Part shown: piece after piece, positions 11,100 through 45,938 of the stretch
Position numbering within the stretch: the stretch's first letter is position 1
Layout of the letters: every line of letters starts with the position of its first letter
NCBI RefSeq assembly: GCF_018977255.1
Contig: NW_024704742.1
Location: forward strand, 137,270,001 to 137,334,000
DNA: 64,000 bases
Source: Callorhinchus milii
Taxonomy: Eukaryota
Reading direction: 5' to 3'
Notes under the pieces: generated by a model
Databases searched by the model: none
Told to the model about the DNA's origin: nothing
The model's input: only the letters and a program-made list of their open reading frames with translations
Translations under genes and position numbers: made by a program

Positions 11100-11825
11100 C
11101 CTTGTCTATATGCTCCCTCTGGACAATGTCATCCGCAGACACGGGGTAAATTTTCACATGTTTGCCGATGATACACAAATCGACTTTGCCTCCTCCAGTA
11201 CCAACTCCAGGTCCCCGATTTTCTGTCGGCTTGTCTGGCAGACATCAAGGCCTGGATGGTGCAAACTTCCTGCAGCTGAATGTGGACAAGACAGAAGCCA
11301 TACTCCTTGGCTCCTGTCAATGTCTTCACTCCTGCGGATCTCAGACTCACCAAACCAGTGCGCAACCTAGGCATCCGGTTTGACCCCCAGCTGTTCTTTC
11401 TCCCCCACATCCGGTTCCTGACCAGGACCGCCTTCTTCCACCTCCGCCACATTGCCCATCTCCAACTGTATCTTACCCCAAATACAGCCAAAACCCTTGT
11501 GCATGCGTTTGTCACCTTCCACTTGGATTACTCCAACGCACTCCTCGCCTGTCTCCCAGCTCCATCATTCACAAGATCCAGCTCATTCTGCCGCCCGCAC
11601 ACTGACCCGGACCAGACTCCGGATCATTGCAAGTTTTTTTTTGCCTCCTTCATGGCACATTCTAAGACTCTCCCCTTTAACCACGCCTTCAGTCAACCTC
11701 CTACCCCACCTTTCATGCTCTCCACCCCTCATGATCCCAACCTCTGGATCCCAAATCCTGACTGTCCAACGCCTTGGGAAATCCTTCTGACATGAAAGGC
11801 ACTGTGTAAATATCATTTGTTGTTG
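11100..11825 (+). mobile_element. Decayed L2-type LINE 3' fragment
   Basis: FHMFADDTQ, FLQLNVDKTE, LVHAFVTFHLDYSNALL; (TTG)n tail. Similar fragments at ~17640-19135, 27815-28318, 42560-43310, 59260-60115. Confidence 0.85.
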
Positions 11826-11969
11826 ATGAGCCAGACATGTTGAAAGAATCCTGTGGGAAGTTGCGAGATGGATTAAGGGTCAGGTCCTGCCTGAAACCTT
11901 TGCTACGTTACTGTAAAAAGATGTTGGAAAGTTTTGTTCTGTTGACTATCTCCTCTATCCCTGGTGAAG

Positions 11970-12130
11970 CTGGGGAAGATGCGGCTGACAGTGCCGTGTC
12001 GAGCTGTGACCTGCACGCACCTGCAGTGCTTCGATGCCGCTCTCTACCTGCAGATGAATGAAAAGAAGCCCACGTGGATCTGCCCGGTGTGTGACAAGAA
12101 GGCCACGTACGAAAGTTTAATAATAGACGG
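11970..12130 (+). CDS. PIAS2: PIAS2 exon 9 (SP-RING/zf-MIZ)
   Basis: gaag|[53 protein letters not shown]|gtgagt. Confidence 0.96.
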
Positions 12131-13568: not shown

Positions 13569-13705
13569 TCTATTCATGGAGATCCTGAATTCCTGCACGG
13601 ACGTGGATGAGATCAAATTCCTGGAGAATGGAGCCTGGTGTCCGATGAGACCCAAGAAGGAGTCGCTGAAACTATCCTCTCAGTGTCCCAAGGTGGAAAG
13701 CACAA
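13569..13705 (+). CDS. PIAS2: PIAS2 exon 10
   Basis: ccag|LFMEILNSCTDVDEIKFLENGAWCPMRPKKESLKLSSQCPKVEST|gtacgt. Confidence 0.92.
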
Positions 13706-15051
13706 GTACGTAGGTCCTGCCAACATCTATGTTGTTCACATCACTACTGCAGGCAGTGGATCAAGGAGCAGTAAAGGGTTCCTACAGCTCGAGTTGTGTT
13801 CAGTCCTCAGCTCTGCGCTGGCATGTTACTCTGCACAAGCCAGTCTCCTGCTCCCTCTTCTCCAGTTCCCCTTCTCATCCCCATCCCCTTTAAAACCCCT
13901 TCTCTTTGAGTACATATCTGAAGATTTATCCTTTTGAAATAGGTTAAGGAGAGATCCAATCGAGGTGTTCAAAATTATGAGTTTTAATAGAGTAGACAGG
14001 GAGAAACGTTTCCACTGGCGGGTGGGTCAGTAACCAGAGGATACAAATTTAAGATGATTGGCAAGAAACTAGAGAGGAGGAGAATTTTATTTTCACACAG
14101 CATTGTGACAGTCTGGAATGCACTACCTGAAAGGGTGGTGGAAACAGATTCCATGACAACTTTCAAAGGAAAATTAGATAGGTACTTGAAAAGGAAAAAT
14201 TTGCAGGGGTATGGGGAAAGAGCAGGGGAGTGGGACTGATTGGTTAGCTCTTCGAAAGATCCGGCAGAGGCACGATGGGCCGAATGGCCTCCTTCTTTGC
14301 CGTAATATGCCATGATTGCCTCAACTACGATTTGTGACAGTGATTTCCACATGCATCCCAATCTCGGCCCCTCACCCAAGTCGTTCTCCCTCTCCTCTCT
14401 GAGCTACTTGATAGCTGTGTTCTCTCTCACTGTTAATGTCCTAGTAAATTTATGCTGCACTCTCTCTCTCTCTCCAATGTTACAGTAGTACGGCAGTACT
14501 TCAAATGTGATCAGATTAAGAGGAAGCTAGATATACACATGAGAGAGAAGGGAACAGAAGAATATGGAATGGAGTAAGGAGTGAGTGGATACTCGTGAAG
14601 TATAAACACTGGAACGAGCTAGTCTGGCTGAACGGCCTGTTTCAGTGTTGTACATTTTATGTAAATCTATATGATTTATCCAAGGTTTTAGATAAATTTA
14701 CAACTTGCATTTATATGGAAGACCTTCCTCTTCGACCGGGCTTAGGGTCACCTCTTCCCTTCCCCCAGCTTGGCTCGTAGTCAGGCTCTGCCACTGTTAA
14801 GCTCTCCGAGACAGTGCCTCGTGTGAAGGGCACTTTATAAGTTGTTGAGTGCAAAATACTCACCTTGTTTGCCTATATAAACCAGGTTAGTATTCCCTGG
14901 TATTATACACATCCCAGCACCTTGGGACGTCCTCTCGACGTGAAAGCTGCTGTATGATAGAATTTTGTTGTTGGTGTTGTGCATACCATAGCGACGCGTG
15001 ACTGACTGACGTGTAAAGCGGGTGTTAAACGTGAGCTGTGTCTAACCCCAG

Positions 15052-15223
15052 CGAGTGTGAGCAAGAGCGGGGCAGCAACGCCAGCCAGCGAGTCCAGCAG
15101 CAGCAAAAAGGTGGAGGTCATCGACCTCACGCTGGACAGCTCGTCATCTGAGGAAGAGGAGGAGCCCCTCCCGAAGAAAAGGTGCCTGTACCCGTCTGAC
15201 ATTGAGGAAAACGCTGGCAAAGG
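15052..15223 (+). CDS. PIAS2: PIAS2 exon 11 (SUMO-interacting motif and acidic tract)
   Basis: ccag|..KKVEVIDLTLDSSSSEEEEEPLPKKRC..GK|gttagt. Confidence 0.92.
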
Positions 15224-16775
15224 GTTAGTCAAGGCGCGTCTTTCCCTCTTGTCTTCTAACACACACGTGAGTTGGTTTTGCCCAAATAACACTCGGTATT
15301 ATACACAAGGCTTTTGGTTACCTCCTGTTCAATTGAGTCATCTGTCTGGGTTCTGTCTGTCTTGGGATTCAATGATCACAGAGGCTAATGGGACGATCTC
15401 AAGGGCCTGGAATGCAAAAGCGGAAGCGATGCATCAGTTGTACAGAGCCTTGGCCGTATCCTATCTGCAGACCGCGTTCAGTTTTAGGCACCCGCACCTC
15501 AGGAAAGATATATCCTCTCTGGGGGGGGGGTTCACCAGAAAGACCCTAGGGATGAAAGGGTCAAATTGTGAGGACAGGTTACATAAACTTGGTCTGTATT
15601 CCCTGGAGTTCGGAAGGTTGAGGGCTGATCTGATTGAGGTGTTTAAAATCATAAAGGGATTCCATAGGGTAGCTGCAGAGAAACTATTTCCTCTGGTGGG
15701 GAATCCAGAACAAGGGGCAATTTGGCGTGGAACCACAGAAGCACTTTTTCAAGTAGTGGATATCTGGCCCCCTGTCTCCCTCTCCCAAAAGGCTGTGGAT
15801 GTTCGATAAATTGGAATTTTCAAGACTACGGTGAACAGATATCTGTTAGGTCAGGGTATCCAGGGATATGGGGCAAAGGTGGGTAAGTGCAGTTGAGGTT
15901 CAGATCAGCCATGATTTAATTGAATTTACTTAGATTGAATTTATAATTATTTTTGGTATCGAAGTCAATTTTGAGGGGTTCAGGAAGCGTGAGTCCCACC
16001 AGGTGTTCGGATCTATAGGGCTGGATTCGTCCGGATAGACGGTGGGCAACCACTTGTCTCTGGGTCAGAAGGTTGTAGATCCATTCACACGACCTGTGTT
16101 GGGTCTCACAGCCCAGGCTGACACTTCCTTGTTGGGAGGAGGGTAATATAATAATAATAATAATAATCCTTGCATTTGATAGAGCACCTTATATCTCGAG
16201 GCGTCTCAAAGCGCCTCACAGAATACATTGTAAAGTGAATTAACTGTATATTTTGTGAGTGAAACGCAGCAGCCAATTACACACAGCAGCGTCCCACAAA
16301 CAATGGTGGATTGAGTGACCAAATTATTATTTTTTTTGAAGGGATTTTTACCCCCGGAAAAGCGATCCGCCAATCGACTAACAACCATGTTCCTACTTAC
16401 TGCTAAGGTAAACAGAGGCGTGTTAACAGAGGGTGGGGAGAACATGGAGAGCCCAGGTTATGGAGGCAGCTGATGTGTGGAGTGATGTGACTTATATTAG
16501 AAAATAATGTTTGGGGATACAGTATACGAGTAATTTGAGACATGACATATAGTAAGTGTAGAATGGCTCGGAAGAACCAGGCAACTTTGGATCTAAGGTT
16601 CCCAAAGCTTCCCGCTGTGTTGTAGACTACACAGTCCATACAGAATTAATCGCTATCGACATCTCCATTACTTTAGCAAGCGACGGCCAGGATAGTAGAA
16701 GGTGGACTAGATGGACCTGGGTCTGTTGTTGTCCATCTGCCCTGTGATGCTATGTGTGTTTACTGTGCTCTGCAG

Positions 16776-16903
16776 GGTCCTCACGTACCAGCCCTCCTCG
16801 CTCCGGGTCCCCCCCGTGGACTCCAGTTTCCTGCCCCAGCTCTCGGACTACCCAGCTGCGTTCCACCACTCGACCATGTCCACACTACCCCCAGAGATAC
16901 ACA
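16776..16903 (+). CDS. PIAS2: PIAS2 exon 12
   Basis: gcag|VLTYQPSSLRVP..DYPAAFHH..PPEIH|gtaagc, phase-1 end. Confidence 0.92.
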
Positions 16904-17029: not shown

Positions 17030-17435
17030 ACAAATAGGAAGTTCTGCTGAACCTTTACAAGACACTGGTTAGGCCTCAGCTGGAGTATTGCGTCCAATTC
17101 TGGGCACCGCACTTTAGGAAGGATATCAAGGCCTTGGAGAGGATGCAGAGGAAATTTACCAGAATGGTACCAGAGATGAGGGACTTCAGTTATGTGGAGA
17201 GACTAGAGAAGCTGGGATTGTTCTCCTTAGAGCAGAGAAGGTTATGGGTAGTTTTAATAGAGGTGTTCAAAATTATGAGGGGTTTTGATAAGAGTGGAGA
17301 TAGGGAGAAACTGTTTCCATTGGCAGGTGGGTCAGTAACCAGGGGACATGGATTCAAGATAATTGGCCAGAGGGGAGATGAGGAGACATTTTTTTCCACA
17401 GTTAAGGCCTGAAAGAGTGGTGGAAACAGATTCAA
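17030..17435 (+). mobile_element. CR1 LINE 3' fragment cut at the left inversion breakpoint
   Basis: LVRPQLEYCVQFWAP/LEKLGLFSLEQRRL CR1 ORF2 end; stops at ..gaaacagattcaa. Confidence 0.85.
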
Positions 17436-17821
17436 ATTGTGGTCGCTGCTGTGCGCAATCGGTTACCACGTTCACCCACGAAAATACAGTCACTACACTT
17501 TACAGTAAATCCTGCGAAGCCCTTTTGAGACGTCCTCCCACCTACACCAAATGCAGGGATTGTTATTCTCCGCACGTGTGTGTACCTGTAATATGTATGT
17601 GCCTGTTTTTGTGTGTGTGAATAGTCGTGGTAGGAGGTGATGCCCTCTTTATCTCCCACCTTGACTTCTCCAATGCCCTTCTCACCGGTCTCACCAGCTT
17701 TGCCGCCCACACTGAACTCTGTACCCCTATCACCCCAGTCCTCGCCAGGCTCCACTTGCTCCCTATCACAGAACGGATCGAATTCAAGACCCTCTCACAC
17801 GTCTACAGATCCCTTCACGCC

Positions 17822-18835
17822 CTCTCTACCTCTCTAACCTACCTACTCCCCACGCCCTGGCACCTCTCTACCTCTCTAACCTGCCTACTCCCCACGCCCT
17901 GGCACCTCTCTACCTCTCTAACCTGCCTACTCCCCACGCCCTGGCACCTCTCTACCTCTCTAACCTGCCTACTCCCCACTCCCTGGCACCTCTCTACCTC
18001 TCTAACCTGCCTACTCCCCACGCCCTGGCACCTCTCTACCTCTCTAACCTGCCTACTCCCCACGCCTGGCACCTCTCTACCTCTCTAACCTGCCTACTCC
18101 CCACGCCCTGGCACCTCTCTACCTCTCTAACCTGCCTACTCCCACACCTGGCACCTCTCTACCTCTCTAACCTGCCTACTCCCCACGCCCTGGCACCTCT
18201 CTACCTCTCTAACCTGCCTACCCACACCCTGGCACCTCTCTACCTCTCTAACCTGCCTACTCCCCACGCCCTGGCACCTCTCTACCTCTCTAACCTGCCT
18301 ACTCCCCACGCCCTGGCACCTCCCTACCTCTCTAACCTGCCTACTCCCACGCCCTGGCACCTCCCTACCTCTCTAACCTGCCTACTCCCACGCCCTGGCA
18401 CCTCTCTACCTCTCTAACCTGCCTACTCCCCACGCCCTGGCACCTCTCTACCTCTCTAACCTGCCTACTCCCCATGCCCTGGCACCTCTCTACCTCTCTC
18501 ACCTGCCTACTCCCCACGCCCTGGCACCTCTCTACCTCTCTAACCTGCCTACTCCCCACGCCCTGGCACCTCTCTACCTCTCTAACCTGCCTACTCCCCA
18601 CGCCCTGGCACCTCTCTACCTCTCTAACCTGCCTACTCCCCACGCTCTGGCACCTCTCTACCTCTCTAACCTGCCTACTCCCCACACCCTGGCACCTCTC
18701 TACCTCTCTAACCTGCCTACTCCCCACGCCCTGGCACCTCCCTACCTCTCTAACCTGCCTACTCCCCACGCCCTGGCACCTCCCTACCTCTCTAACCTGC
18801 CTACTCCCCACGCCCTGGCACCTCTCTACCTCTCC
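17822..18835. repeat. 42-bp minisatellite (~24 units) within an L2 remnant
   Basis: cctctctacctctctaacctgcctactccccacgccctggca repeated. Confidence 0.95.
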
Positions 18836-19130
18836 GAATCTGCTTACTCCCCACTCCACTACCCGCTGCCTTTGCTTGACTGGCTCTGGCCTCCTGCTTC
18901 CTCGGTCCCCACCACTCCACCATCTGCGCCCGCGTTTTCAGCCACTACGCCCCAACATTCTCCCTCAATCCCTCCGCCTTGCCCCCCCCCCCCCCCACTC
19001 CTTCCCCAGCTTCAGGTCGCGTCTAAAGACCTTCCTCTTCGCCGGCGTTTTACAGTCGCCTCCTCCCCTCTCCATGTCAGGCCGTTAAGCGCTCGGAGAC
19101 GCTACCCCGTGTGAAGGGCGTGAATGCAAG

Positions 19131-21125
19131 TTGTTGTGTCTCTGTGTGCGGGTCTCTGTGCGGGTCTCTGTGTGGGTCTCTGTGTGGGTGTGTTTGTCTC
19201 TCTCTGGCTCTGTGTGTGTGTGTGTCTCTCTCTCTCTCTGTGACAGTGTGTGTCTATTTCTATGTCTGTGTGTGTCTATGCGTCTCTCTGGGTATAGGTG
19301 TGTGTCTTTCTCTGTGTGTCTCTCTGTGGGTGTGTGTGTGTGGGGGGGGGTCTCTGTGTGTGTGTGTGTGTGTGTCTGTCTGTCTCTGTCTGTGTGTTTG
19401 TCGGTGTGTGTCTGTGCATGTGTCTCTCTGTCTGTGTGTGGGTAGGTCTGTGTGTGTGTGTGTGTATCTGTCTCTCTGTGTGTTTCTCTCTGTGTCTGTG
19501 TGTGTGTGTCTGTGTGTGTGTCTCTCTGTGTCTGTGTGTGTGTGTCTGTGTGTGTGTGTGTGTCTGTCTCTCTGTGTCTGTGTGTGGGTAGGTCTGTGTG
19601 TGTGTGTGTCTCTCTGTGTTATTCTCTCTGTGTCTATGTGTGTGTGTGTGTGTGTGTGGGTAGGTCTGTGTGTGTGTGTGTATCTATCTCTCTGTGTCTG
19701 TCTCTCTGTGTCTGTGTGTGTGTGTCTGTGTGTGTGTGTGTCTGTGTGTGTGTCTCTCGCTGTGTCTGTGTGTGGGTAGGTCTGTGTGTGTGTGTGTCTC
19801 TCTGTGTTATTCTCTCTGTGTCTGTGTGTGTGTGTGTGTGTGTGTGGGTAGGTCTGTGTGTGTGTATGTCTCTCTGTGTCTGTGTGTGTGTGTGTGTGTC
19901 TCTCTGTGTGTGTCTCTCTGTGTCTGTGTGTGTGTGTGTTTCTCTCTGTGTCTGTGTGTGGGTAGGTCTGTGTGTGTGTGTGTGTGTGTGGGTGTGTGTG
20001 TGTGGGTCTGTGTGTGTGTGTCAGTATCTTACCTCTTGATGTAGTTTTTCCCGTTTAAGATGTGTTGGAGAAGTGTCACGATGGCAAAGGCAGAGATGAA
20101 GATAAAAAACAGGGATCGGTTCCCCAAAATGTCCTTTCCTGAGCGTTCAGAGTAACCCATTCCCTCTGTGTTTTCTGTGTCCCTGTCCCTGTGTGGGTGT
20201 GTGTGTCCCTGTGTGTGTGTGTGTCTATGTCCCTGTGTGTGTGTCTATGTCCCTGTGTGTGTGTGTGTCTATGTCCCTGTGTGTGTCTGTCCCTGTGTGA
20301 GTGTCTATGTCCCTGTGTGTGTGTCCCTGTGTGTGTGTGTCCCTGTGTGTGTCCCTGTGTGTGTGTCTATGTCCCTGTGTGTCTGTCCCTGTGTGTGTGT
20401 GTCCCTGTGTGTGTCCCTGTGTGTGTGTGTGTCCCTGTGTGTGTGTCCCTGTGTGTGTGTGTGTGTCTGTGTGTGTGTGTGGCTCTGAGCTGCTATTTAA
20501 TAGACACAGACGCATTGAGCCCTTTTCACGTCCGAGCCCTCCTCTCCTCTCCTTCCCTCCCCCCCTCTCCACCCCCTCTCCTTCCCTCCCTCCCCCTCCC
20601 TCTCCTTCCCTCCCCCTCTCCCCCCTCTCCTTCCCTCCCTCCACCCTCTCCCCCTCCCTCTCCTTCCCTCCCCCCTCCCCCCCTTCCCTCCCTCCCACCC
20701 ATTCCCCCCCTTCCCACCCATTCCCCCTCCCTCTCCCCCCCCCCCTCACTCACTCCTCCCCCTCCCTCTCCCTCTCTCCCTCTCCCCCCCTCCCCTCCCC
20801 CCTCTCCCCCCTTCCTCCTCCTCTCCCTCTTCCCCTCCTCCCCCCTCCCTCTCCCCTCCTCTCCCTCTTCCCTCCTCTCCCCCCCCTCCTCTCCCTCTTC
20901 CCCCCTCCTCCCCTCTCCCCCACTCCCCTCTCCCCCACTCCCCTCTCCCCCTCCTCTCCCTTTCCCCCTCTCCCCTCTCCCCCTCCTCCTCCTCTTCCTC
21001 TCCCCCCCCCTCTCCCCTCTCCCCCCCCTCACCCCTCTCCCCCCCTCACCCCTCTCCCCCCTTCCCACCCATTCCCCCCCCTCCTCTCCCCCTCCCCTCT
21101 CCCCCCCTCCCTCTCCCCCCCCCCC
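19131..21125. repeat. GT-rich simple repeats flanking ST8SIA5 exon 1, then a ~590-bp C/T-rich tract (20540-21125)
   Basis: Direct reading. Confidence 0.9.
20033..20160 (-). CDS. ST8SIA5: ST8SIA5 exon 1 (cytoplasmic tail and transmembrane signal anchor), minus strand inside the inversion
   Basis: [42 protein letters not shown] ag|gtaaga; compare human ..DLLGSRTLLFIFICAFALVTLLQQILYGRNYIKR; phase 2 joins exon 2. Confidence 0.93.
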
Positions 21126-21287
21126 TCTCCAGACTGCCTCCTGTGATATGCAACTCAGTGGGAAGCTGCAGGAAGACCCCCCACAGAGCATTCCTGTGTC
21201 ACAGAGACTGCAGCTCATAACCGCCTCTCTCCTCTCTCTGTGTCTCAGGTTCTCAGTGTCCGTTCAGCCCCAACAGCACCGCGATCT

Positions 21288-22080
21288 GGGGGGGGGGGGG
21301 GAGGTCTGTGCAGAGAGGGGGGGGTCTGTGCAGAGAGGGGGGGTCTGTGCACAGAGGGGGGGTCTGTGCAGAGAGGGGTGTCTGTGTAGAGAGGGGGGGG
21401 TCTGTGCACAGAGGGGGGGGTCTGTGCAGAGAGGGGGGGGTCTGTGTAGAGAGGGGGGGTCTGTGCACAGAGGGGGGGTCTGTGCACAGAGGGGGGGGGT
21501 CTGTGCAGAGAGGGGGGTCTGTGCACAGAGGGGGGGGTCTGTGCAGAGAGGGGGGGGGGGTCTGTGCAGAGAGGGGGGGGGGTCTGTGCACAGAGGGGGC
21601 GGGTCTGTGCACAGAGGGGGGGGTCTGTGCACAGAGGGGGGGGTCTGTGCACAGAGGGGGGGTCTGTGCAGAGAGGGGGGGGTCTGTGCACAGAGGGGGT
21701 GGGTCTGTGCACAGAGGGGTGGGTCTGTGCACAGAGGGGGGGTCTGTGCACAGAGGGGGGGGGTCTGTGCACAGAGGGGTGGGTCTGTGCACAGAGGGGG
21801 GGGTCTGTGCACAGAGGGGGGGGGTCTGTGCAGAGAGGGGGGAGTCTGTGCAGAGAGGGGGGGGGGAGTCTGTGCAGTGAGAGTGGGGTGGGGGGAAGAG
21901 TCTGTACAGAGAGTGTGGGTGGGGGGGCGGGGAGAGCCTTTACAGAGAGTGGGGGGGTCTGTACAGAGAGAGTGTGGGGGGGGGGGATGGGGAGAGTCTA
22001 TACATAGAGAGAGTGGGGGGGGGGAGAGTCTGTACAGAGAGTGGGGGGGGGGAGAGTCTGTACAGAGTGGGGTGGGGGGG
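21288..22080. repeat. ~20-bp G-run minisatellite with a palindromic core
   Basis: (G)n-tctgtgcacaga-(G)n units. Confidence 0.9.
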
Positions 22081-22389
22081 GGGTTAGAGAGAGACCAAAT
22101 GGATTGAGTGACCAAATTATTATTTTTTTGGAGGGATTATTAGTCCTGGAAAGCGATCGGTCTATCGACTGACGACCGGGTTCCCAATTACCGCTGTAGG
22201 TAAAAATAAAAAAAAAACACCCCCAATAATGCTAATTTTCCAGATATTAAATAAAAATGGGAATTAATGTGAATTGATTGCATTGTTGCAATAATTTTTA
22301 AACCTATTCTGATATTGTAATACACTACAATTATTATAATCCTAAATATAATTATATTATTGTGTTATGTGATATTGATAATATTGTTA

Positions 22390-22876
22390 CACCCACAAAC
22401 ACACTCTCATACACACCCACACACTCTCTCACACACACCCACACACACACATTCACATACACACCCACACACACTCTCACACACACCCACACACACACTC
22501 ACATACACACCCACACACTCTCACACACACACCCACACACCCACACACACTCTCACACACACCCACACTCACATACACACCCACACACACTCTCACACAC
22601 ACACCCACACACACCCACACACACTCTCACATACACACCCACACACTCACATACACACCCACACACACTCTCACACACACCCACACACACCCACACACAC
22701 TCTCACATACACACCCACACACTCACATACACACCCACACACTCACATACACACCCATTCTCACATACACACCCACAAACACTCACACATACACACCCAC
22801 AAACACTCACACATACACACCCACAAACACTCTCACACATACACACCCACAAACACTCACACACATACACACACAA
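22390..22876. repeat. CA-rich simple repeat
   Basis: Direct reading. Confidence 0.9.
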
Positions 22877-24902
22877 ACAGTCGTGGATTGAGTGGCCAAT
22901 TTATTATCATTTTATTTATTTATTTTTGATGAGATCATGACTCCCTCAATGCAATCCAATTGACTAACAACCTGGTTCTTACTTACTACTAGGTAAACGG
23001 AGGCATGAGGAGCAAGGAAACTTACCTGCCCAGGAACCCTGCCTACCCAGTTACTCCCTGCCCAGGAAACAAGCCGGGCTTGTGATGCGAGTGCTCGAAC
23101 CACTACACTTATAATAATAATAATAATAATCCTTGCATTTGATATAGCGCTTTTCACGTCTGGAGGACGTCCCAAAGCGCTTCACAGAACACACTGTAAA
23201 GTGAATTGACTGTATATTTGTGGGCGAACGCGGCAGCCAATTGCGCACAGCAATGTCCCACAAACAGTCGTAGGTTGAAAATGACCAATTTATTATTGTT
23301 TTTTGTTTTGGAGGGATTATTATTAGGCTCTGTGTGGAGTAAGGAAACTTGCCCGAGGTTTCGCCCTCTGCCTGGGATTGAACTCAGGTCTCTCACTTGC
23401 AAAGCGAGTGCTCTAACCACTGAGCTACAGGACTCCAGTTCAGGACTCCACATACATCCCACCTACACATGGAAATTCCAGAGACAGATTGTTGGAATGG
23501 GATTTGACACTAAATTACTCAAAGCCCAACCTCCCTTCCTCTGACATTCACCTCCTCTACATGCTCAGCTACCTCAGGGCTGCTGTGTTTCCCTCAGTCT
23601 CGATGGCCCCATCAGCAGTTGAGCGTTCAGCTATTTCACCGCTAACCTCTGCACCTTCTACCCTTCTGTCTCGCCCCCCTCACCTCTGTCTCGCACCCCC
23701 CTTCACCTCTCTGCCTTGCCCCCCCCACCCCTCTGTCTCACCCCCTGCCTTGCTCCCTCTCAACCCTCTGCCTCTTCAACCGTGCTTATGGTTACCTCCC
23801 CCTCCCCTTGCTCGGTGCCAGGCTCCGCCACTGTTAAGCGCTCCGAGACACTATCCCACATGAAGGATGCAATATAAGTTGCGGTTGTTGGATTCGATCT
23901 CACTGATTCCTTTATTCGGGGTCCGACCCCCCCCCCCCCCATCTCTGTGCCGCGCTCCGAGACATTTTATTCCACGTGGAGAGTGGAGGGTGTATAACAA
24001 CAGGACGGCGTTGTGGGTGCACAGTATGGATGGAAATAATCCTCAAGGATTTACCCTAATAGGCCCCTCCTGTGGCCAGTTACAGCACAGCTAAACCTCA
24101 CCAAGGTTCCAATCAAGGTCACGTCAGAAAAATATCTGACGCTTCCAACGCAGTGCTGGGGAGACCTCTGCATTGGTGGAGGTGTTGTCCTTTGGATCGG
24201 GTTATAAACCAAAGTCTTGTCCGCCTGTTCCGGTGGACCTTAAAGATCCCTCGGTGCTATGTGCAAAGAGTGGGGTGGTTTTCTCTGTGTCCCGCCCAAC
24301 AATCCTCCAGATAAAATTGTTTTTTCGCCTCACGGATGTTTGTGGGATAGTGGTGTTGTTGCTGGCAAAACTGGCTGTCACATTTTCCTGCAAAATTCAC
24401 ATAGGGTAACATTTCTGCAGTCCTGTAGCTCAGTGGTTAGTGCACTCGCCACTCGAGTGAGAGACCTGGGTTTGATTCCCGATAGGGCAAAATGTTGGGC
24501 AATTTTCCTTACTCCACACGACTCTATTTACTTAGCAGGAAGTAGGAACCCGGTTGTTAGTCGATTGGCTATCAATGGTGAGCTATACGGTTTTGACTCA
24601 TTAAAATCCAGCAGTTACCCCAATACACACTCTGGGGTCCCCATGCCTTTTGGCCCCTGCCAACCTGCGCCTAATACTGAGTGGAATTAGGTAAGCAGGA
24701 TACATACCTCCACATGGGGGGGGGGGGGAATGGGGGGAAGAGAGAAGTGTGCACTGCATTCCAGTCACGGGAATGTCCACATGTCGGTGGAATGCACGGA
24801 ACTCTCAGTTAGTAATAATCCTTGAATTTGATATAGCGCTCATCATGTCTTTGAGTCGTCTGAAAGTGTTTCATAGAAAACTGTATTTTGTGGGAGCCAA
24901 TT

Positions 24903-25443
24903 GGGTAGGGCATGGAAGGGTAAGACAGGGAGGGTAGGGCAGGGAAGGGCAGGGCAGGGAAGAGAAGGGTAGGGCAAGGCAGGGTAGGGCAGGGAGGGTA
25001 GGGTAGGGCAGGGAAGGGCTGGGCAGGGTAGGGCAGGGTAGAACAGGGCGGCAGGGCAGGGCAGGGTAGGGCAGGGCAGGGAAGGGTAGGGCAGGGAAGG
25101 AGGGCAGGGTAGGGTAGAGCAGGGCAGGGTAGAACAGGGCGGTAGGGCAGGGCAGGGCAGGGAAGGGAAGGGAAGGGTAGGGCAGGGAAGGGTAGGGCAG
25201 GGAAGGGTAGGGCAGGGCAGGGCTGGGCAGGGAAGGGCAAGGTAGGGCAGGGTAGCGTAGGGCAGGGTAGGGAGGGCAGGGTAGGGAGGGTAGGGTAGGG
25301 AGGGTAGGGTAGGGCAGCGCAGTATAGGGCACGGCAGGGCAGGGAAGGGCAGGCAGGGTAGGGAGGGTAGGGGAAGGTAGGGTAGGGCAGGGTAGGGGTA
25401 GGGAAGGACAGGGCAGTGTAGGGCAGGGCAGGTGGGGGAGGGG
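24903..25443. repeat. (GGGCA/GGGTA/GGGAA)n pentamer array
   Basis: Direct reading; abuts the CpG island. Confidence 0.9.
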
Positions 25444-25479
25444 TCAGACACACACTGACCACAAACCATCATGCAGCAC

Positions 25480-26115
25480 AGGGTGGGTGTGGGAGGGGTC
25501 ACGTGGGGAGCACGTTACGTTGACGCACGACGTCAAGGCGTCGTGGCCCAGGTCTCCCGCTCCGCAAAGCCGAGTGTCCGTGAGGGAGCGCGAGAGGAGG
25601 AGGACAGTGTCCCGGTTGTAATCGGGGAACATCCGCCCACATGGTCAGTGATAATCCCCGCCGACGGCCCGAGCGGGCAGCGGGGCGTCCCGTCCGCCAT
25701 CCCAGGCCGCCATTTGTGACCGATGATGCTTCGTTTTCGGGATAAACTTAACCGTCGGCGGTCGGGCGCGCGGATGGACGGACGGACGGCCGCTTCCCCG
25801 CGCGGTTCCCGGCCTCTCGCCGCCGCCGCCGCCGGAGGGGCGGGCGGGCGGTGACGACGCTGCGGCCGCTTCATCAGGAGATTGCGGTGCACCGCGCGGA
25901 AAGCTTTCGTGGTTCGGTTGCGGCGGCCCCGCGCGCGCAGGGGCGGGGAGGGGGTCGAGGTATCCAGCAATTGCCGGACCCCCCCTCCCTCAGGTCCCGC
26001 CCGCTTCCCCGCCGCTGATTGGCTGGCAGTGACGTCATTGATCACCGAGCCCCCCCTGCTTTGATTGGCTGCTCGGGGTGTCGATCAACCCCTCCGCCCC
26101 GCCCACTCAGTCTTT
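25480..26115. promoter_or_regulatory. CpG-island promoter
   Basis: Dense CpG; E-box CACGTG 25500, ATF/CRE-like sites 25521-25535, YY1 GCCGCCATTT 25706, reverse CCAAT 26018 and 26064, CRE TGACGTCA 26030, GC boxes 26094-26104, Inr-like TCAGTCT 26107. Confidence 0.8.
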
Positions 26116-27132
26116 TGTCCATTACATTACATTTCATTGTGATTTCCTTGTGATGGTAAATGGAATAATAGGGCCTTTGAGGTCTTGACACAGTGACTTG
26201 TTATTAGATTAAACCGCATCGCGTCCCGGGGCCGAAAACCCCGGGATACAATCGGAGCCACTTGCGAGACTCTCGAGGGCGGGGGGGAGTGGGGGGGAAA
26301 CTGTTCTGTTGCGTTCTTCTCCAAATATAATGCTGATAGTCCGCGCATTTGGTGTACCGCGTCTTCGAGGCGTCTCAACGCGCTTCGCAGAATAGACTGT
26401 GAAGTGAATTGACTGTATATTGGTGGGCGCGAGGCGGCCGCCAATTGCGCACAGCAGCGTCCGCCACACACGGTCGTGGATTGAGTGACCGAATTATTAT
26501 TGTTGCCTTCAACTACACAGTCACTGCACTTGACAGCGGTTGCCCGTGTAAGCGTTTGGGACGTTTGGGCATTTTATAGGTGCTGTATCGCGTCAGTTTG
26601 TGAATCTCAGCGCTGGTATGAATGAATCTCAGTGACGATCGATGCTTTGTGGATTTCTGGCAGGACATTGTTCAGGAGTCAGGGCCGCACACCATTGCTC
26701 AGACTTGAGACCTGCACTTGGAAAACTGCCTGAAGGATCCAGAGGAGGATCTCGCTCGCCTCCACGTCAAGGTACAAGTTAGTGAGACACGGCTGTCAGT
26801 GCAGTACACGGCACACGCCCATCGCCATTGTGAGGGTGTCTCTCCCCGTCAATAAGTCTTTCGGTAAGCGGGGGGTGGGGGGGGCAAACCAAAACTGACA
26901 GTGGTGTGACCCTATAAATAGTGCTGTGACCCTACAAAAGGTGGTGTGACCCTGAATACAGTGGTATCAGCCCACAAGCAGTGCTGTGAGCCCACAAGCA
27001 GTGCTGTGAGCCTATAAACAGTGCTGTGACCAGGTTAGCAATGTCAGGGTGGCAGTCAGTCAGGCGAGGCCTCAGTTTAACATCCCCAGGAAACCCATCA
27101 CTGAGCCCATGAGTGTCCAAACTAGAGGTTTG

Positions 27133-27291
27133 AGCGGAGCCGCTGGTGGGGTTGAACGCCTGCAGTTCCCGGTGTGGGTGTGTGTGTCTCCGTCGTACAC
27201 TCTGCTGTGGCTGCTGAGAGAGAACGTGCAGCTCATGGGCTCCTGAGCCCTGACTAGTGGGCCTGGGGGATATAAATTGCTGCAAACAATG
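27133..27291 (+). ncRNA. H/ACA snoRNA, SNORA5-like, copy 1
   Basis: Two hairpins, H box AGAGAA (27219-27224), ACA (27286-27288); 3' pocket UCAUGGG/AUA(U)AA complementary to 18S AAUUAU-Psi-C-CCCAUGA. Confidence 0.75.
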
Positions 27292-27411
27292 GATTGTACC
27301 AGTCTGGTCACCCTGCGGGTGGGGGGAGGGGGAGGGGATTCCATGTGGTGATAGTATTTCTAGCCGGTCGTCGGCTAAAGTTTAGTGGAAGGTTCACTGG
27401 GCTCAGTTGAT

Positions 27412-27450
<39 letters not shown>

Positions 27451-28782
27451 CTCTGGCTCGACTGGTTGTGTGTTGACTCCACTGTTTCTGTTAGTGACCT
27501 GTACAGTCACCTCGGCTCGGGTGGCCTCACAATGAGCACCAGAGAGCAGTCCAGTCGGACATCCATAACTCACGCTGCCCCCTGACACCACGCACAGCGG
27601 TGAAGGGCATATCATCAGTGTCTGGAGCTGCTTCACAGCTGTAACCTGTGGCTGGAATCTTCCCAGGTGGATGCGACCACTTTTGTTTCCTCCGCCCATC
27701 TCTTGGCTCTTGCCAACCTGCGCCTGATATTCTCCGGAACCAGGTAACCAGGTAACGACTGTGCATTCCATTCCAATAATCTATCTCTGGGATTTCCATG
27801 TATAGGTGGGATCCCGCACCAGGCTTCGTGACCACATCACTCCCACCCTCGCTCACCTCCACTGGCTCCCCATCCGCCAAAGGATTGAATTCAACATCCT
27901 CATCCTCACCTACAAGGCCATTCATGGCCTTGCTCCCTCCTACCTCTCCGACCTACTATCCCCCTATCTACCTGACCGTACCCTCCGTTCCTCTGGCTCT
28001 GGTCTGCTCCACATTCCCCGCCCCAACCGCCCGACCATCGGTGGCCTTCAGCCTCTCAGCCCCGAGGCTCTGGAACTCCATCCCCCAGTGCCTTCACCGC
28101 TTCCTCCCTTTCCACCTTCAAGGCCGGTCTCAAGACCTTTCTCTTTGACCGAGCCTTCAGCTCCCTCTCGACTCTCTACCCCTCCTCGCTCCCTCCCTTC
28201 CCTTCCCCTCCCTGATCCATCCCCCCTAGTAGTCCAATCCCTACCGTCCAGCGCCATTGGGCTCCTCCCGACGTGAAAGGCGCTCTATAAATGGAATCTT
28301 GTTGTTGTTGTTGTTGTTGATGCAGGGAATTCTCAGTTTGGTTTGGAGACTCTTAAACAACGGTGATGGGTTTCTGCATGTGTCAGGCACCCGGCTGACC
28401 AAAAAGAAAATTGTCTCTTCTCTTCCCACAGTGCCCGGAGCAGACGGTTGGAGGAATCTGCGTGCTTCAGCAGGAACATGGGCCTGTGTTTGCAGAGTCG
28501 GAGGTGGTTAGGATGCCCATCGCCATTGTGAGGGTGTCTCTCCCCGTCAATAAGTCTTTCGGTAAGCGGGGGGGTGGGGGGGGCAAACCAAAACTGGATC
28601 CCGCCTGACAGTGGTGTGTCCCTATAATCAGTGGTGTGACCCTACAAGCAGTGCTGTGAGCCTATAAGCAGTGCTGTGACCAGGTTAGCAATGTCAGGGT
28701 GGCAGTCAGTCAGGCGAGGCCTCAGTTTAACATCCCCAGGAAACCCATCACTGAGCCCATGAGTGTCCAAACTAGAGGTTTG

Positions 28783-28941
28783 AGCGGAGCCGCTGGTGGT
28801 GTTGAACGGCTGCAGTTCCCGGTGTGGGTGTGTGTGTCTCTGTCGTACACTCTGCTGTGGCTGCTGAGAGAGAACGTGCAGCTCATGGGCCCCTGAGCCC
28901 TGACTAGTGGGCCTGGGGGATATAAATTGCTGCAAACAATG
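28783..28941 (+). ncRNA. H/ACA snoRNA, SNORA5-like, copy 2
   Basis: Near-identical to copy 1 at offset 1650; H box 28869-28874, ACA 28936-28938; a U>C change keeps upper-stem pairing. Confidence 0.75.
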
Positions 28942-29479
28942 AATTGTACCAGTCTGGTCACCCTGCGGGTGGGGGGAGGGGATTCCATGTGAAGTGATAG
29001 TATTTCTAGCCGGTCGTCGGCTAAAGTTTAGTGGAAGGTTCACTGGGCTCAGTTGATAGCTCTCTCTCTCTCTCTCTCTCTCTCCCCCTCTGGCTCGACT
29101 GGTTGTGTGTTGACTCCACTGTTTCTGTTAGTGACCTGTACAGTCACCTCGGCTCGGGTGGCCTCACAATGAGCACCAGAGAGCAGTCCAGTCTGACATC
29201 CATAACTCACGCTGCCCCCTGACACCACGCACAGCGGTGAAGGGCATATAATAATAATAATAATAATAATCCTTGCATTTGATGTAGCGCTTTTCACGTC
29301 GGGAGGACGTCCCAAAGCGCTTCACAGAACACACAGTAAAGTGAATTGACTGTATATTTGTGGGCGAACGCGGCAGCCAATTGCGCACAGCAATGTCCCA
29401 CAAACAGTCGTAGATTGAAAATGACCAATTATTATTGTTTTTGGTTTTGGAGGATTATTATTAGGCTCTGTGTGGATAA

Positions 29480-29504
29480 NNNNNNNNNNNNNNNNNNNNN
29501 NNNN
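29480..29504. other. Assembly gap (25 N)
   Basis: Run of n; a single n also occurs at 55526. Confidence 0.99.
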
Positions 29505-32400
29505 AACTGCCCCAGCGCCCCTCCCACCACGCCCGCGCCCACACGACTGCCCCAGCGCCCCTCCCACACCGACTGCCCCCAGCGCCCCTCCCACACCGAC
29601 CGCCCCCAGCGCCCCTCCCACACCGACTGCCCCCAGTGTCACTCTCCTCACACCTACAATGATGCTTTTCACATTGGCTCAAGATCTCATTTAGACTTAC
29701 GCGACAACACTAAAAAGCATCGGTGGCCCCAAAAACAATCTGCCAAACGACATCTTCACCCACGTTGGTGCGGACCCTCAACTTTTCCACATGGACATAT
29801 ATATGGGGGCTAACCCCACTCAGTCTCCAAGCCAGCCCATGGGCATGAGCAAACACTGGTTTATTGGTCAATCTCACAAGATAATGAACAGAACAGTTCC
29901 TCCCACATCATAACCCCTCACACCTTCTCCCCAAACAGGAGCCTTCTCTGGGCGAGGAAGGGAGGGGAGCTTTCCTCAACACCCAGAGGTCAAACGCAAA
30001 GAACGAAGCGCAGAGAATTCCTCTGCCAAGGCTCGTGCAGGAGAGGAACCTTAAAAAAAGGATCAATCACGGAGCCCCGAAGTCCTGCCCGAGACGGTTC
30101 TCGTCTTTCAACAACAACAACGTAAGATGGCGGAGAATTGTGCAACAATTCTTCAGTCACACTCAAATGTGGGTGAGGGAGAGAGAAGGTTGGGCTGGTG
30201 GAGGGTTGAAATTGGGTTGGGATTACTTGGCATCTTGAATCCCCTTTGTGTCGAAAAAAACTCGTTTGACGTTAAAAAATTATAAACTGTTTTAAAACAG
30301 CATCGTCGACTACTGGGTCGCGAAAGCAACCGTCCTTCCCTCTCCGCTGCACACATACAGCACCCGAAGGAAATCTCCATCAAGTTTCATTCTGTCACAC
30401 AATGCTTTTGGATTCACAAAAAGTTCCGAACATACAGTAACATAAAAACAGCCCTATTATTCCTGGCTGAGTTTTCTCTCTGTCTACCCCCAACCCCCCT
30501 CTCTCTTCACCCCGACCCCCACTCCAAACCATAATAATAATAATCCTTGTACTTGATATATGCCTTATCACGTCAGTGAGACGTCTCAAATCACTTCACA
30601 GGACATACTGTGAAGTGAATTGTATATACTTTGTGGGTGAAATGCACCTATCAAACAAAAAGGAAATTACTGGAGTTTAATTTGTATTTGTTCCTTTATG
30701 TGGAAACCTGGATCATGCTGATCGAGGGAGGGAGGGAAGGCAGGGCCAAACCTTGGGCAAGTTTCCTTACTCCACACAGAGCCTAATAATAATCCCTCCA
30801 AAACCAAAATCAATAATAAATTGGTCATTTTCAATCTACGACTGTTTGTGGGACATTGCTGTGTGCAATTGGCTGCCGCGTTCGCCCACAAATATACAGT
30901 CAATTCCCTTTACGGTGTGTTCTGTGAAGCGCTTTGGGAAGTCTTCCCGACGTGAAAAGCGCTATATCAAATGCAAGGATTATTATTATTATTATTATTG
31001 TTAAGGAGGGTTGATCCCTGGTAGATAGGAGTAAACCGTTCAGGCTGATCCCTCTGCTTTGACCTCAGCTGCCATAGCCTCTGGTTTACCTCTGAGCTGA
31101 TGCACCAGGCACCAAAGGGCAACGGAGGGAGCTCTTTACCAAACATCAAGGATATATAATACTCCTTCCATTTGATTCGGCACCTTATCACATTGTAGGG
31201 ACGCCTCAAAGCCCTTCACAGGATCGACTGTGCATTTTATAGGCAAAATGCGGCAGCCAATTGTGCACCGCAGTGTCCCACAAACAGTTGTGGATTGAAT
31301 AACCAAATTTATTTATTCTTGGGAGGGATTATTACCCCCGGAAAGTGATCCGCCAATCAAAAAGGGTTCCTACTTAATGCTAGGTAAACAGAGGCGTGCG
31401 TAAGGAGTAAAGAAACTTGCCTAAGGATTTGCTCTGTCCGGGAATCGAGCCCTCACGCTTTAACCACTGCGCATGAGAAAGGAAAGAAAATAAACATTGC
31501 TTTCCCTCTGAGAAAGGCAAACGGAAGGGACCTCCTTGGGAGCCGAGTTGACAGCCAGACGCCCATCCTGTACCCCGGAGTCAGAAACAATTCACAGTGG
31601 AGCTTTTTCCCCCAAAAAACAAAGTTACGGGAGAGAAAAAACCCTCTCCTGGAGCAGCCTCGCCCCTCAGAGAAACTTTTTCTTTTAAAAAGTTTTTGTT
31701 GTGATAATCTGTACACATTTATATATAAAATCTATTTACACGGTCAAAGGTGAAAGGGTTAACGTCCCGCACTCAGCCATAGCCTCACTCGGGAAATATT
31801 AACCCTTTGCTTTTTGTGGCTCAGTTTGTCGCATTCGAGAGTTCGGGGTGGGGTGTGCGTGTGTGTGTGTGTGGGGGGGGGAAAAGAGCATGGTCCAGGG
31901 GTAACTCTCTGTCTCTGCTCATCCTCTGGATCCGCACGCTGATCAGACAGTGCTGCTGTGGTTTCCTTCAACAAATGTTGCCGACAGATTCCAGCCGGTC
32001 TGCAGAATGTAACGTTGTCTTTTCCTGCTGGGGGGGTGGGGGGGAGAGGGTAGTTGGGTGGGGGGGGGGGGGGGGGGCTGCAGAGGAAGGGGTCCCGGAG
32101 TCTGGTGAACAAGTCTGCTGACTTGTAACCACAGCCGATTGCATCCATTTGTCACAGTAAGAGTTTATCTCTGATCCTCTGTCCCCGCTGGGCTCGGTGT
32201 TTAAGTGGACCCTCCTCACCGCTGGCCGGGCCCAGTAACCAGGCCACGTGGACCTTCAGAAATGCCATCGATGGTTCCCTGGTGGGTGAACCTCCTGGTC
32301 AATGGGTCGTTCACATCAAGCCCTTTGTTCCTCTAACTCCTTCTTTCCGATCAATCTTGGTTGCACTGCTCCAGTCAGTCAGTCATTCCTGTCAAAGACA

Positions 32401-32604
32401 TCAATCCAAGGAGATGATATCCGGTGCGTTGCTCCCCCCGCCCCCGCCCCCTCCCCCGGTGATCACCCCGGTCTCGACCCCCCTGGCAGCGTTGCTTTCG
32501 TGGTGCTGGGAGGAGGAGATGATGGCCCCGGTCATGGTGGTGGGAGTCAGGCTGGGCGAGCTGACCGCTGACGTCAGGTTATCCAGGAAGATAGACTGGC
32601 AACA
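32401..32604 (-). CDS. PIAS2: PIAS2 terminal exon 14 (beta-type C-terminus), minus strand
   Basis: attacag|CCQSIFLDNLTSAV...ETGVITGGGGGGGGSNAPDIISLD*; PDIISLD is the PIAS C-terminus; exons 2-14 total 1854 nt in frame. Confidence 0.93.
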   Translation of the reverse strand, partial: CCQSIFLDNLTSAVSSPSLTPTTMTGAIISSSQHHESNAARGVETGVITGGGGGGGGSNAPDIISLD

Positions 32605-33190
32605 CTGTAATAGAGCGACAAAGAGAGAGAGAGAGAGAGAGCAGTGAGCAGAGACAAGAAATAATAATAATCCTTGCGTTTCAAATAGGGTCTTATCAAG
32701 CGCTTCACAGGATATATGTGAAGTGAACGGACTGTGAATATATGTGGGTGAAACACAACGACCCATCTACAGGGCTGGAAAGAACCACAGCCCTCACCTT
32801 GTGCCCTCACAGATTACTCTCCAAACTCAAACTAATTCAGCAGCAATTTTACATCGATAGCGTGCGCTTCACATCAGAACTCCCAGGGCAACACTGAATA
32901 AAGGGCCCCCCCTAACCCTCGCGATAGCACTGACCGTCATATCCACCATCGACAATCAGGTTACCTTTACGCGTTACATTTGTGAGCCTCTCAGCCCCCA
33001 CCCTCAGGAACACCATCTCACAGTGCCTCCGCCTCGCTCCCTCTCTCGCCTGCTTGAAGACCCACCTCTTCGGTCACCACCTCACCCCCACCCTCCCTGT
33101 CCTTCACCCTTCTCTGATCCCAACCCCCAGTTCAGGTCCAAATCCCTGACCGTCCAGCGCATTGGGTCATCCTCCCGACGTGAAAGGTGC

Positions 33191-33655
33191 TGTGCAAATG
33201 TAACGTGTTGTTGTGTGCAAATGTAACGTGTTGTTGTGTGCAAATGTAACGTGTTGTGTGCAAATGGAACGTGTTGTGTGCAAATGTAACGTGTTGTGTG
33301 CAAATGTAACGTGTTGTGTGCAAATGTAACGTGTTGTGTGCAAATGTAACGTGTTGTGTGCAAATGTAACGTGTTGTGTGCAAATGCAACGTGTTGTGTG
33401 CAAATGCAACGTGTTGTGTGCAAATGTAACGTGTTGTGTGTAAATGTAACGTGTTGTGTGTAAATGTAACGTGTTGTTGTGTGTAAATGTAACGTGTTGT
33501 GTGCAAATGTAACGTGTTGTGTGCAAATGCAACGTGTTGTGTGCAAATGCAACGTGTTGTGTGTAAATGTAACGTGTTGTGTGTAAATGTAACGTGTTGT
33601 TGTGTGTAAATGTAACGTGTTGTTGTGTGTAAATGTAACGTGTTGTTGTTGTTGT
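33191..33655. repeat. 20-23-bp minisatellite in PIAS2 intron 13
   Basis: gtgttgtgtgcaaatgtaac repeated. Confidence 0.95.
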
Positions 33656-33676
33656 GACTGCGGTGCTCACACCCAC

Positions 33677-33714
33677 CTGAGCATCATTCTGAAACAGAGA
33701 GAAAAAGTCCAGAT
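33677..33714 (-). CDS. PIAS2: PIAS2 exon 13 (38 nt), on the minus strand inside the inversion
   Basis: Reverse complement: tttctccag|at ctg gac ttt ttc tct ctg ttt cag aat gat gct cag|gtgggt = (N)LDFFSLFQNDAQ; compare human GLDFLSLIPVDPQ; phase fits exons 12 and 14. Confidence 0.88.
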
Positions 33715-34011
33715 CTGGAGAAAGAGGAAATTTGTACCAACATGAGAAAGTACAAGATTTCAGCCGCGGTTACTCCATTTCCTGCCCCACACTACTCCCC
33801 ACAACTGCCCCAACTCCCACTCTACTCTCCACTCCTTGCCCACGTCTGGGACTGCTCCCACCTACCCCCTCAGCCACATTTCCCCCTTCCCCCCATGACT
33901 CCTGTGCTCCCCCAGCTCTGACTGTGGCTGCCAGCTCCCACATCCCCGATATTATAATATTCCAATTCAACCTTTAAGTAAATCTGCCCCACACATCACA
34001 ACCCAGTTGCT

Positions 34012-34178
34012 CTTAGAAATCTATTGCAGCACAGAAGGAGGCCATTAAGCCCATCGTGCCTGTGTTGGCTCTTTGGAAGAGCTACCAACTCGTCCCACTC
34101 CCCCCCCGCTCTTTCCCCATATCCTTGCAAGTTTCTCCTTTTCAAGTACCCATCTAATTCCCCTTTTGAAAGTTGTTA
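34012..34178 (-). mobile_element. Remainder (3' end) of the same CR1 at the right breakpoint
   Basis: Minus strand starts taacaactttcaaaagggg.. and ends with the tail ..aatggcctccttctgtgctg; colinear with the intact copy at ~14140-14310. Confidence 0.85.
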
Positions 34179-34958
34179 CAGCCATGAAGTGAATGAGTAA
34201 TGTTTTTTCTGGGGGGGGGGGTTGTTGGCCAGGACACGGGTGGGGGGAAGGGGTGAAACTCCCTTCTGCTTTTGAATAGAGCAGTGGTGATCTCTAACGT
34301 GCACCTGAAGAGGCCCAGACGGGACCTCAGTTTAACGTCTATTCCGAAGGACGGCATCTTCAGTAACGCAGTGCTCCCCCCACCCCCCCACCCAGCACTG
34401 AGCTGGAGAGTCCGCCGCGACTGTGAGCACAAGGTCCTGATACATGTGTGAACCCACAACCTAACAGACAGAGACAGAGAAACACAGACCTATGGACGCG
34501 CAGACATAAAACACACATACTCCACCTAAAGTTCCTCCTACACTCCCTGTTAGACCTCTTACTGACTCGCTTACGTTCACACCCGCAAGTTTAGACTCGC
34601 CAACAGTGGAAACAGCTCATCAACATCCACCTTATCGAACCTTTAGGATCTTTAAAGTCTACCTGTATAGGCACATTTAGGAACTCGGCTGAACATCACA
34701 GCTGAAGGACAGCGCAGCGCTCGCCCAGTACTACACTGGAGCATCAGCCAAGACCGCACAGGTTTAAAGCTCCGACATGGGGGGCTTGAACCCACAAACT
34801 TCTGACTCGAGACGAGACGAGAGTGCTACTGACCGAGCCTAAACAACCTAAACAACCTTGATATCCACACTAATTGTGTATACCAACAGTCGGATATTAA
34901 TTTTGTATTGTATGTGTCCACATCTCTCTCTTCCTCTCTCTCTCTCTGCCTGTCCATG

Positions 34959-45868: not shown

Positions 45869-45898
45869 GTAAGTGAAAGACGCTGTACAAATGCCATT

Positions 45899-45938
<40 letters not shown>

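Follow-up and report, generated by a model that had tools for sequence, protein, structure and literature searches.

A 16.7 kb reversed segment across PIAS2 and ST8SIA5 in Callorhinchus milii: a probable error of genome assembly

Recombination between inverted repeats yields gene-disrupting inversions, such as the F8 intron inversions, and blunt end-joining requires no homology. Reversed stretches can also be products of assembly, and 45 fine-scale orientation errors are given for proximity-ligation scaffolding in the accessible part of one preprint (bioRxiv 10.1101/2019.12.19.882399). Gap fillers insert extensions from both sides of a gap and leave N where the gap is only reduced (PMC3504050). 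The PBJelly papers, in their accessible text, mention fills of wrong length, low accuracy and suspected inversions beside overfilled gaps (PMC3504050, PMC9635638, 10.1101/2019.12.19.882399). A literature search, outside which lay subscription papers and bioRxiv supplements, returned no report on the present locus or on reverse-pasted fills.

In this study, we analysed a window of 64,000 nucleotides from Callorhinchus milii in which the exons of PIAS2 and ST8SIA5 are divided between the two strands by a reversed segment. We consider, with a probability of about 0.86, that the reversal arose in genome assembly and that both genes are colinear and intact in the animal. The original prediction had placed the split exons on opposite strands, and its exon coordinates and segment limits were recovered here, together with further features:

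17436..34178, no strand assigned: the 16,743 bp reversed segment, with ends blunt to within one base
2860..16903, plus strand: PIAS2 exons 2–12, exon 12 being 16776–16903
33677..33714, minus strand: PIAS2 exon 13, 38 nt, flanked by AG and GT
32401..32604, minus strand: PIAS2 exon 14, coding part with the stop
31312..31317, minus strand: first AATAAA, 1,083 nt past the PIAS2 stop, a candidate poly(A) signal
20033..20160, minus strand: ST8SIA5 exon 1, coding part, with ATG, hydrophobic anchor stretch and GT donor
45776..52310, plus strand: ST8SIA5 exons 2–7
25401..26150, no strand assigned: CpG island, 5–6 kb upstream of the ST8SIA5 ATG on the minus strand, a putative promoter

Flipping 17436–34178 restores colinear genes with matching phases and open frames, as had been proposed: a PIAS2 model of 617 amino acids and an ST8SIA5 model of 373, with no internal stops and with GT at every internal donor and AG at every acceptor. 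All exons and splice sites are intact, in agreement with the claim that no exon shows decay. The flipped models are identical to C. milii database proteins at 615 of 617 and 373 of 373 residues, respectively; PIAS2 carries SAP, PINIT and SP-RING domains (PF02037, PF14324, PF02891) and ST8SIA5 carries PF00777. Further copies of the split exons, which would remove the need for an inversion, had been raised as a way out; a search of the genome assembly (G000) yielded no second copy for either PIAS2 exon 14 or ST8SIA5 exon 1. The upstream neighbours encode SKI, Yos1, HAD and AAA domains and form a conserved neighbourhood of PIAS2 and ST8SIA5, in an order and orientation that we take to be those of SKOR2, IER3IP1, HDHD2 and KATNAL2.

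Among database proteins of C. milii, P0001 and P0245 join PIAS2 exons 12, 13 and 14, and P0121 joins ST8SIA5 exons 1 and 2; the proteins of relatives (P0003, P0009 and P0124) keep the exon order unchanged. NP_001279920.1 was rejected as support for the ST8SIA5 exon 1–2 join, its sequence being a mosaic. Protein models based on a genome follow the genome sequence. A further PIAS2 model from a chromosome-length contig (P0241, 400 amino acids) stops at exon 9 followed by an intronic stop, an end that would be expected if a public assembly also lacked a colinear PIAS2. A weak search for proteins in which exon 12 runs into other sequence returned none; one of its 12 candidates matched (P0001 only).

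The ends of the segment were placed with repeats, two copies of which are cut at the junctions:

17036..17435, plus strand: first part of the 3′ region of a high-copy LINE, cut at the left junction
34022..34178, minus strand: next part of that LINE copy, interrupted at the right junction (L003 1501–1904, then 1905–2012)
17437..17534, minus strand: part of a SINE, interrupted at the left junction
34179..34390, plus strand: following part of that SINE, beyond the right junction

The LINE is presumably CR1-like, and the label of SINE for 17437–17534 is likewise our assumption. Alignments of repeats break off abruptly at 17435 and 34178, which upholds the predicted breakpoints of 17436 and 34178 to within one base; base 17436 matches neither repeat continuation, and 17437–34177 does nearly as well as 17436–34178. 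The present junctions are spanned by 0/127 and 0/44 repeat alignments and the flipped junctions by 12/18 and 16/139. The flip rejoins both the LINE and the SINE to within one base and neither adds nor removes sequence. Neither junction shows a templated insertion, duplication or deletion (at most one odd base), and neither contains N. Aligned with each other, the two breakpoint regions share no microhomology, their best alignment is 14 nt (E 1.8), and no inverted repeat is found. Non-allelic homologous recombination was therefore rejected for want of inverted homologous repeats, as was microhomology-mediated or staggered-break repair, given zero microhomology and no flanking duplication. A contig flipped by the scaffolder was also discarded, since it would need N gaps at both junctions.

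Sequencing reads were compared with 14900–17690, that is, with the left junction only, in four of the 24 listed runs (X1, X2, X4 and X6, from three studies), X4 and X6 being taken as RNA by guess, with no RNA entry on record. Among the pieces listed none crosses 17435/17436 or the corresponding flipped junction, and none of the loose ends listed lies there; the output, dominated by repeat contigs, comprised a further 89,042 pieces and 1,721 loose ends. Contigs from the two runs guessed to be RNA (two studies) splice PIAS2 exon 11 to exon 12 and run 178 and 106 letters beyond exon 12, in letters that are not on the tested stretch.

A gap lies within the segment and divides it into two arms:

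29480..29504, no strand assigned: assembly gap of 25 N, within the reversed segment
17436..29479, minus strand: left arm, 12,044 bp, which in the true order would run on into 34179; holds ST8SIA5 exon 1 and the CpG island
29505..34178, minus strand: right arm, 4,674 bp, which in the true order would follow 17435; holds PIAS2 exons 13–14 and the 3′ UTR

This gap was absent from the original prediction. Three 25-N gaps occur in 264 kb, and at this local density a random 16.7 kb stretch would contain one with p of about 0.17, so that the gap alone gives modest support to an artefact. Single N bases occur at three places, with no break there. A run of 25 N is, we presume, what a gap filler leaves. 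Long simple repeats abound in the segment, and its arms are no longer than long-read extensions, the yardstick being what is generally known of long-read lengths. No indel is found in 370 coding bases of the segment or in a 257 bp young repeat pair, a small sample; if anything, this speaks against a gap fill, since unpolished fills are often 88–96% accurate (PMC8848313).

Together, the inner gap and the lack of the scars of a natural inversion make an assembly error most likely. The larger share of its probability goes to one route. Contigs ending at 17435 and starting at 34179 would have been separated by a scaffold gap, at which a long-read gap filler would have added 4.7 kb to the left contig and 12.0 kb to the right one. 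Failing to close the gap, it would have left 25 N, and the complete patch, with the N run between its left and right extensions, would then have been entered as its reverse complement. Written in reverse, such a patch loses no bases, encloses a gap and meets the old contig ends bluntly. The remainder would fall to other misjoins at this repeat-rich, GC-rich spot. The geometry is observed directly; we infer both the gap-filling step and that the present junctions do not exist in real DNA.

The original prediction had named a very recent or polymorphic inversion or an in-silico flip. A gap-centred assembly error was absent from these options, save as an 'artefact' among the refuting conditions; an artefact is what the evidence favours, whereas the inversion is weakened and a flip made in the window alone finds no support. 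A real, very recent balanced inversion, private to or heterozygous in the sequenced animal and arising from two double-strand breaks rejoined by blunt end-joining, with a coincidental gap, is unlikely. It would account for junctions in N-free sequence and a segment free of an error signature, and chance could have placed the gap (p of about 0.17 locally); however, the junctions lack inverted repeats, microhomology, duplication and deletion, two conserved genes would have been struck at once, the weak protein search (1/12 candidates) returned no exon 12 with other sequence after it, and a second flip in G000, on contig C1178, ends at a scaffold end.

A flip made after assembly, in the analysed copy of the DNA, would also yield blunt, scar-free junctions, as any software flip does. 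It is nevertheless very improbable, since the window and G000 are 100% identical over the left junction, G000 gives the split exons the same strands, and the end of P0241 at exon 9 would fit a public assembly without a colinear gene. Still harder to credit is a rearrangement that has become fixed in the species, trans-splicing between opposite strands restoring both mRNAs. The intact frames and splice sites speak for it, but the two halves of the cut LINE and of the cut SINE still meet base for base, which makes the event too young for an evolved rescue, and P0001, a genome-based C. milii PIAS2 model, is colinear.

A blind flip scan of 264 kb, two earlier rounds of which did not recover the known flip, found both flipped junctions spanned in 20 rows of 1,052 candidate pairs, with 17436–34178 ranked second. 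One side was spanned in 1,031 of the pairs, so that one-sided evidence is worthless. Two of the three other top sites were rejected because their present junctions are spanned; at the third, around a neighbouring gap, the left rejoin is spanned by 59/139 alignments and the right by 3/172, only through an AT-rich tail, and a SKI-domain exon lies on the same strand as its neighbours. Neither of the two neighbouring 25-N gaps shows a clear flip (80 of 86 candidate frames scanned with Pfam); their closest exons, of the SKI-domain and HAD-hydrolase genes, share the strand of their neighbours, and the flip is thus not general. On C1178 a second PIAS gene is strand-split, the flipped piece reaching to about 230 bases from the scaffold end. 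The 25-N gap predicted there in advance is absent (0 N in 19,888 bases), and repeats did not place the junction (0 spanning alignments, no gain over controls); 32 colinear repeat pairs were found, but 78 of 328 control windows were positive too. At the SPRY1 locus, where a segment lies 3.4 kb from a 25-N gap, breakpoints were looked for and not found. Strand splits are otherwise rare: among loci with two or more matches, counted by eye, they occur at 0/43 kinesin, 0/31 myosin and 0/8 other sialyltransferase loci.

The value of the finding lies in correcting a reference rather than in new biology. If the reversal is an artefact, PIAS2 and ST8SIA5 appear disrupted or cut short in an early-branching jawed vertebrate of key importance, the PIAS paralogue on C1178 is likewise affected and false calls of gene loss may follow. 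A gap filler that sometimes pasted backwards would affect other assemblies. Screening for reversed segments that enclose a short N gap would cost little. It is doubtful that a wild chimaera carries a new blunt inversion that disables two conserved genes and sets PIAS2 exons 1–12 upstream of ST8SIA5 exons 2–7 on one strand. Were it real, PIAS2 in this allele would end after exon 12 and ST8SIA5 would be parted from its exon 1, a double knockout of a kind rarely met in nature, perhaps with a fusion transcript. Joining PIAS2 exon 12 to ST8SIA5 exon 2 would break the frame; with exon 12 skipped there is a single open frame of 825 amino acids counted from PIAS2 exon 2, which is predicted to fuse a SUMO ligase to an anchorless sialyltransferase catalytic domain.

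Compared with the PIAS2/ST8SIA5 block of the 18q21 type in vertebrates, the locus encodes the orthologous proteins and differs only in the reversed 16.7 kb. As in F8-type inversions, exons of one gene lie on opposite strands, here without homologous inverted repeats. Misorientation in proximity-ligation scaffolding likewise reverses a short stretch relative to the true gene order; a scaffolder-flipped contig, however, has N gaps at both ends, whereas here the junctions are free of N and the gap lies mid-segment. The unclosed 'overfilled' fills of PBJelly, as described in the accessible parts of the papers (PMC3504050, PMC9635638, bioRxiv 10.1101/2019.12.19.882399), similarly consist of two read-length extensions with a short run of N between them, and, like the patch proposed here, they lie in GC-rich, repeat-rich DNA and are spliced at old contig ends. 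A patch in reverse orientation, as proposed here, is not described in those parts.

In the window, which sits close to where a scaffold of 139 Mb ends (G000:C1:137,270,001-137,334,000), the exons of PIAS2 and ST8SIA5 are split between strands as the original prediction had claimed, and mapping of database-protein queries placed them as follows.

up to 16903, + strand, PIAS2 upstream exons
33677-33714 and 32401-32604, - strand, PIAS2 displaced exons
20033-20160, - strand, ST8SIA5 exon 1
+ strand, ST8SIA5 exons 2-7

Joined in gene order, the PIAS2 exons encode 617 amino acids, 615 of them identical to C. milii P0245 (counted from P0245 residue 9; both mismatches fall within a glycine run), and the ST8SIA5 exons encode 373 amino acids, 373/373 identical to C. 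milii P0121. Every internal exon boundary of both joined genes is GT/AG, so the colinear genes expected on turning back the segment 17436-34178 are indeed restored, with a PIAS2 intron 12 of 996 bp and an ST8SIA5 intron 1 of 14.2 kb, gap counted in. Further copies of the displaced exons, which would undercut an inversion, were looked for in the assembly and none was found. At human 18q21, PIAS2, ST8SIA5 and LOXHD1 lie on one strand; the genes neighbouring the window are taken to be SKOR2, IER3IP1, HDHD2 and KATNAL2. A 228-aa Lys/Glu-rich open frame (window 62484-63170, +) has a charged leader that looks long and an end presumably resembling the LOXHD1 N-terminus.

PIAS2 exons 12-13-14 are contiguous in each of the database proteins P0001 and P0245, as are ST8SIA5 exons 1-2 in P0121; P0122 is without ST8SIA5 exon 1. 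P0123 (NP_001279920.1 / CAM35867.1) was set aside as evidence on exon order, being a mosaic whose residues 99-150 match a paralogue on scaffold C2 (92%) and 186-219 one on C5 (94%), not the window locus. Contigs from the sequencing runs X4 and X6 (two studies, RNA by guess) carry the splice between PIAS2 exons 11 and 12 and go 178 and 106 letters beyond exon 12; this continuation, its letters themselves unseen, is absent from window 14900-17690. At the DNA junction the same comparison was dominated by repeat contigs. P0241, a 400-aa PIAS2 model on a chromosome-length contig, stops at exon 9, which is read into the intron with TGA directly after (window 11970-12134).

Both breakpoints lie inside interspersed repeats, presumably CR1 and SINE. 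When the junctions were compared with 264 kb of neighbouring DNA and nine other loci, the present junctions were crossed by 0/127 and 0/44 repeat alignments and the flipped junctions by 12/18 and 16/139, with zero bases lost. The predicted breakpoints 17436 and 34178 therefore hold, apart from base 17436 alone, which matches neither repeat continuation. Neither microhomology between the breakpoints nor an inverted repeat linking them was found. Since the repeats rejoin without loss and these features are lacking, the reversal is real in the sequence, balanced and scar-free. A blind scan reduced 1,052 candidates to 20 rows with both flipped junctions spanned, among which the segment ranked second. 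Three other top sites were inspected and two failed; at the third, C1:137,159,691-137,174,738, around a neighbouring 25-N gap, the left junction of the candidate flip rejoins a presumed SINE in 59/139 alignments and the right rejoins weakly.

Absent from the original prediction is a run of 25 N at window 29480-29504, on either side of which lie the two arms of the segment (12,044 and 4,674 bp). In the true order the left flank is followed by the 4.7-kb arm, and the right flank is preceded by the 12.0-kb arm; this is how a scaffold gap extended from both sides would look if written backwards. Just left of the gap lies a local duplicate of about 0.8 kb (26817-27615 and 28515-29252; 89% identical, 67 gap columns), with a partial third copy at 6364-6554 within a PIAS2 intron. 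Each of the three 25-N gaps in 264 kb has a single N 4-26 kb later, in or beside a homopolymer run.

window 55526, single N
C1:137,178,905, single N
C1:137,247,581, single N

The first is crossed by 24/213 repeat alignments, so no break lies there.

The reversal is most likely an assembly error (probability roughly 0.86), as argued by the internal gap, the read-length arms, the scar-free junctions, the striking of two conserved genes without decay, and a second flip that ends at a scaffold end. Within that figure, a fill pasted in reverse takes the larger share. A contig flipped by the scaffolder was rejected, as it should carry N at both ends; the N-free junctions also speak for a real recent inversion, as do the lack of an error signature in 370 coding bases and a 257-bp repeat pair of the segment and a gap that could fall inside it by chance (p about 0.17), yet such an inversion is unlikely against the points just listed. 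A flip introduced in silico after assembly is very improbable, for we read the truncation of P0241 as the annotator's response to a locus already broken; a fixed, trans-spliced state is more improbable still. Of the original suggestion of a recent inversion or in-silico flip, the reversal without decay thus stood, whereas neither cause is preferred to an assembly artefact. Were the inversion real, read-through beyond PIAS2 exon 12 would add 35 residues before a stop; exon 12 does not keep the reading frame of ST8SIA5 exon 2; exon 11 does, giving a predicted 825 aa counted from PIAS2 exon 2. The observation is correct and useful as a reference correction and filter rule, and its biological interest is low unless reads show the junctions.

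Evidence that such flips recur is mixed. Among loci with at least two matches, strand-split cases, counted by eye, numbered 0/43 for kinesin, 0/31 for myosin and 0/8 for other sialyltransferases. The PIAS loci with at least two matches included 2/4 that were strand-split. At the two other 25-N gaps within 264 kb the nearest exons lie on the same strand as their neighbours. On C1178, a 19.9-kb scaffold (8999-19888; L034, L035), a PIAS paralogue, which we take to be PIAS3-like, carries residues 7-323 on the + strand and residues 322-494 on the - strand; a NUDT17-like exon on + separates the halves and belongs to the flipped piece, which comes as close as about 230 bases to the scaffold end. A 25-N gap predicted there beforehand was not found, the scaffold being without any N, and repeat tests failed to place the flip junction; read after the fact, the flip fits a one-sided extension pasted backwards. 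Several C1178 arrays (L034:3825-4356, 6767-7263) share a 55-bp minisatellite with an ST8SIA5 intron (window 50324-51339). The 25-N gap at C1:842,924-842,948 (L033:6924-6948), 4.5 kb from an SPRY1 coding exon (847,457-848,455, -), is spanned by a 3.3-kb direct duplication (98.2% identical) that looks like the mark of an overfilled gap; no flip breakpoints were found near it. Another 25-N gap (L028:3786-3810) lies within a HAD-hydrolase gene, presumably HDHD2-like, and may hold a short exon expected between two Pfam-matched exons and recognised on neither strand.

In the proposed course of events, the flanks would have been extended from both sides into a scaffold gap, with N remaining between the extensions, and the whole patch, we infer, written backwards. 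A filler of the PBJelly type reportedly leaves exactly 25 N after a partial fill. In the passages of the PBJelly paper cited here, a gap is defined by at least 25 N, flank extensions are spliced into it, N remain where it is merely reduced, and inversions and other errors are suspected at overfilled gaps (PMC3504050). Gap filling as a last step is exemplified by one long-read pipeline (PMC8302630). The literature searched yielded no report of reverse-pasted fills. In layout the segment and a two-sided PBJelly fill are alike.
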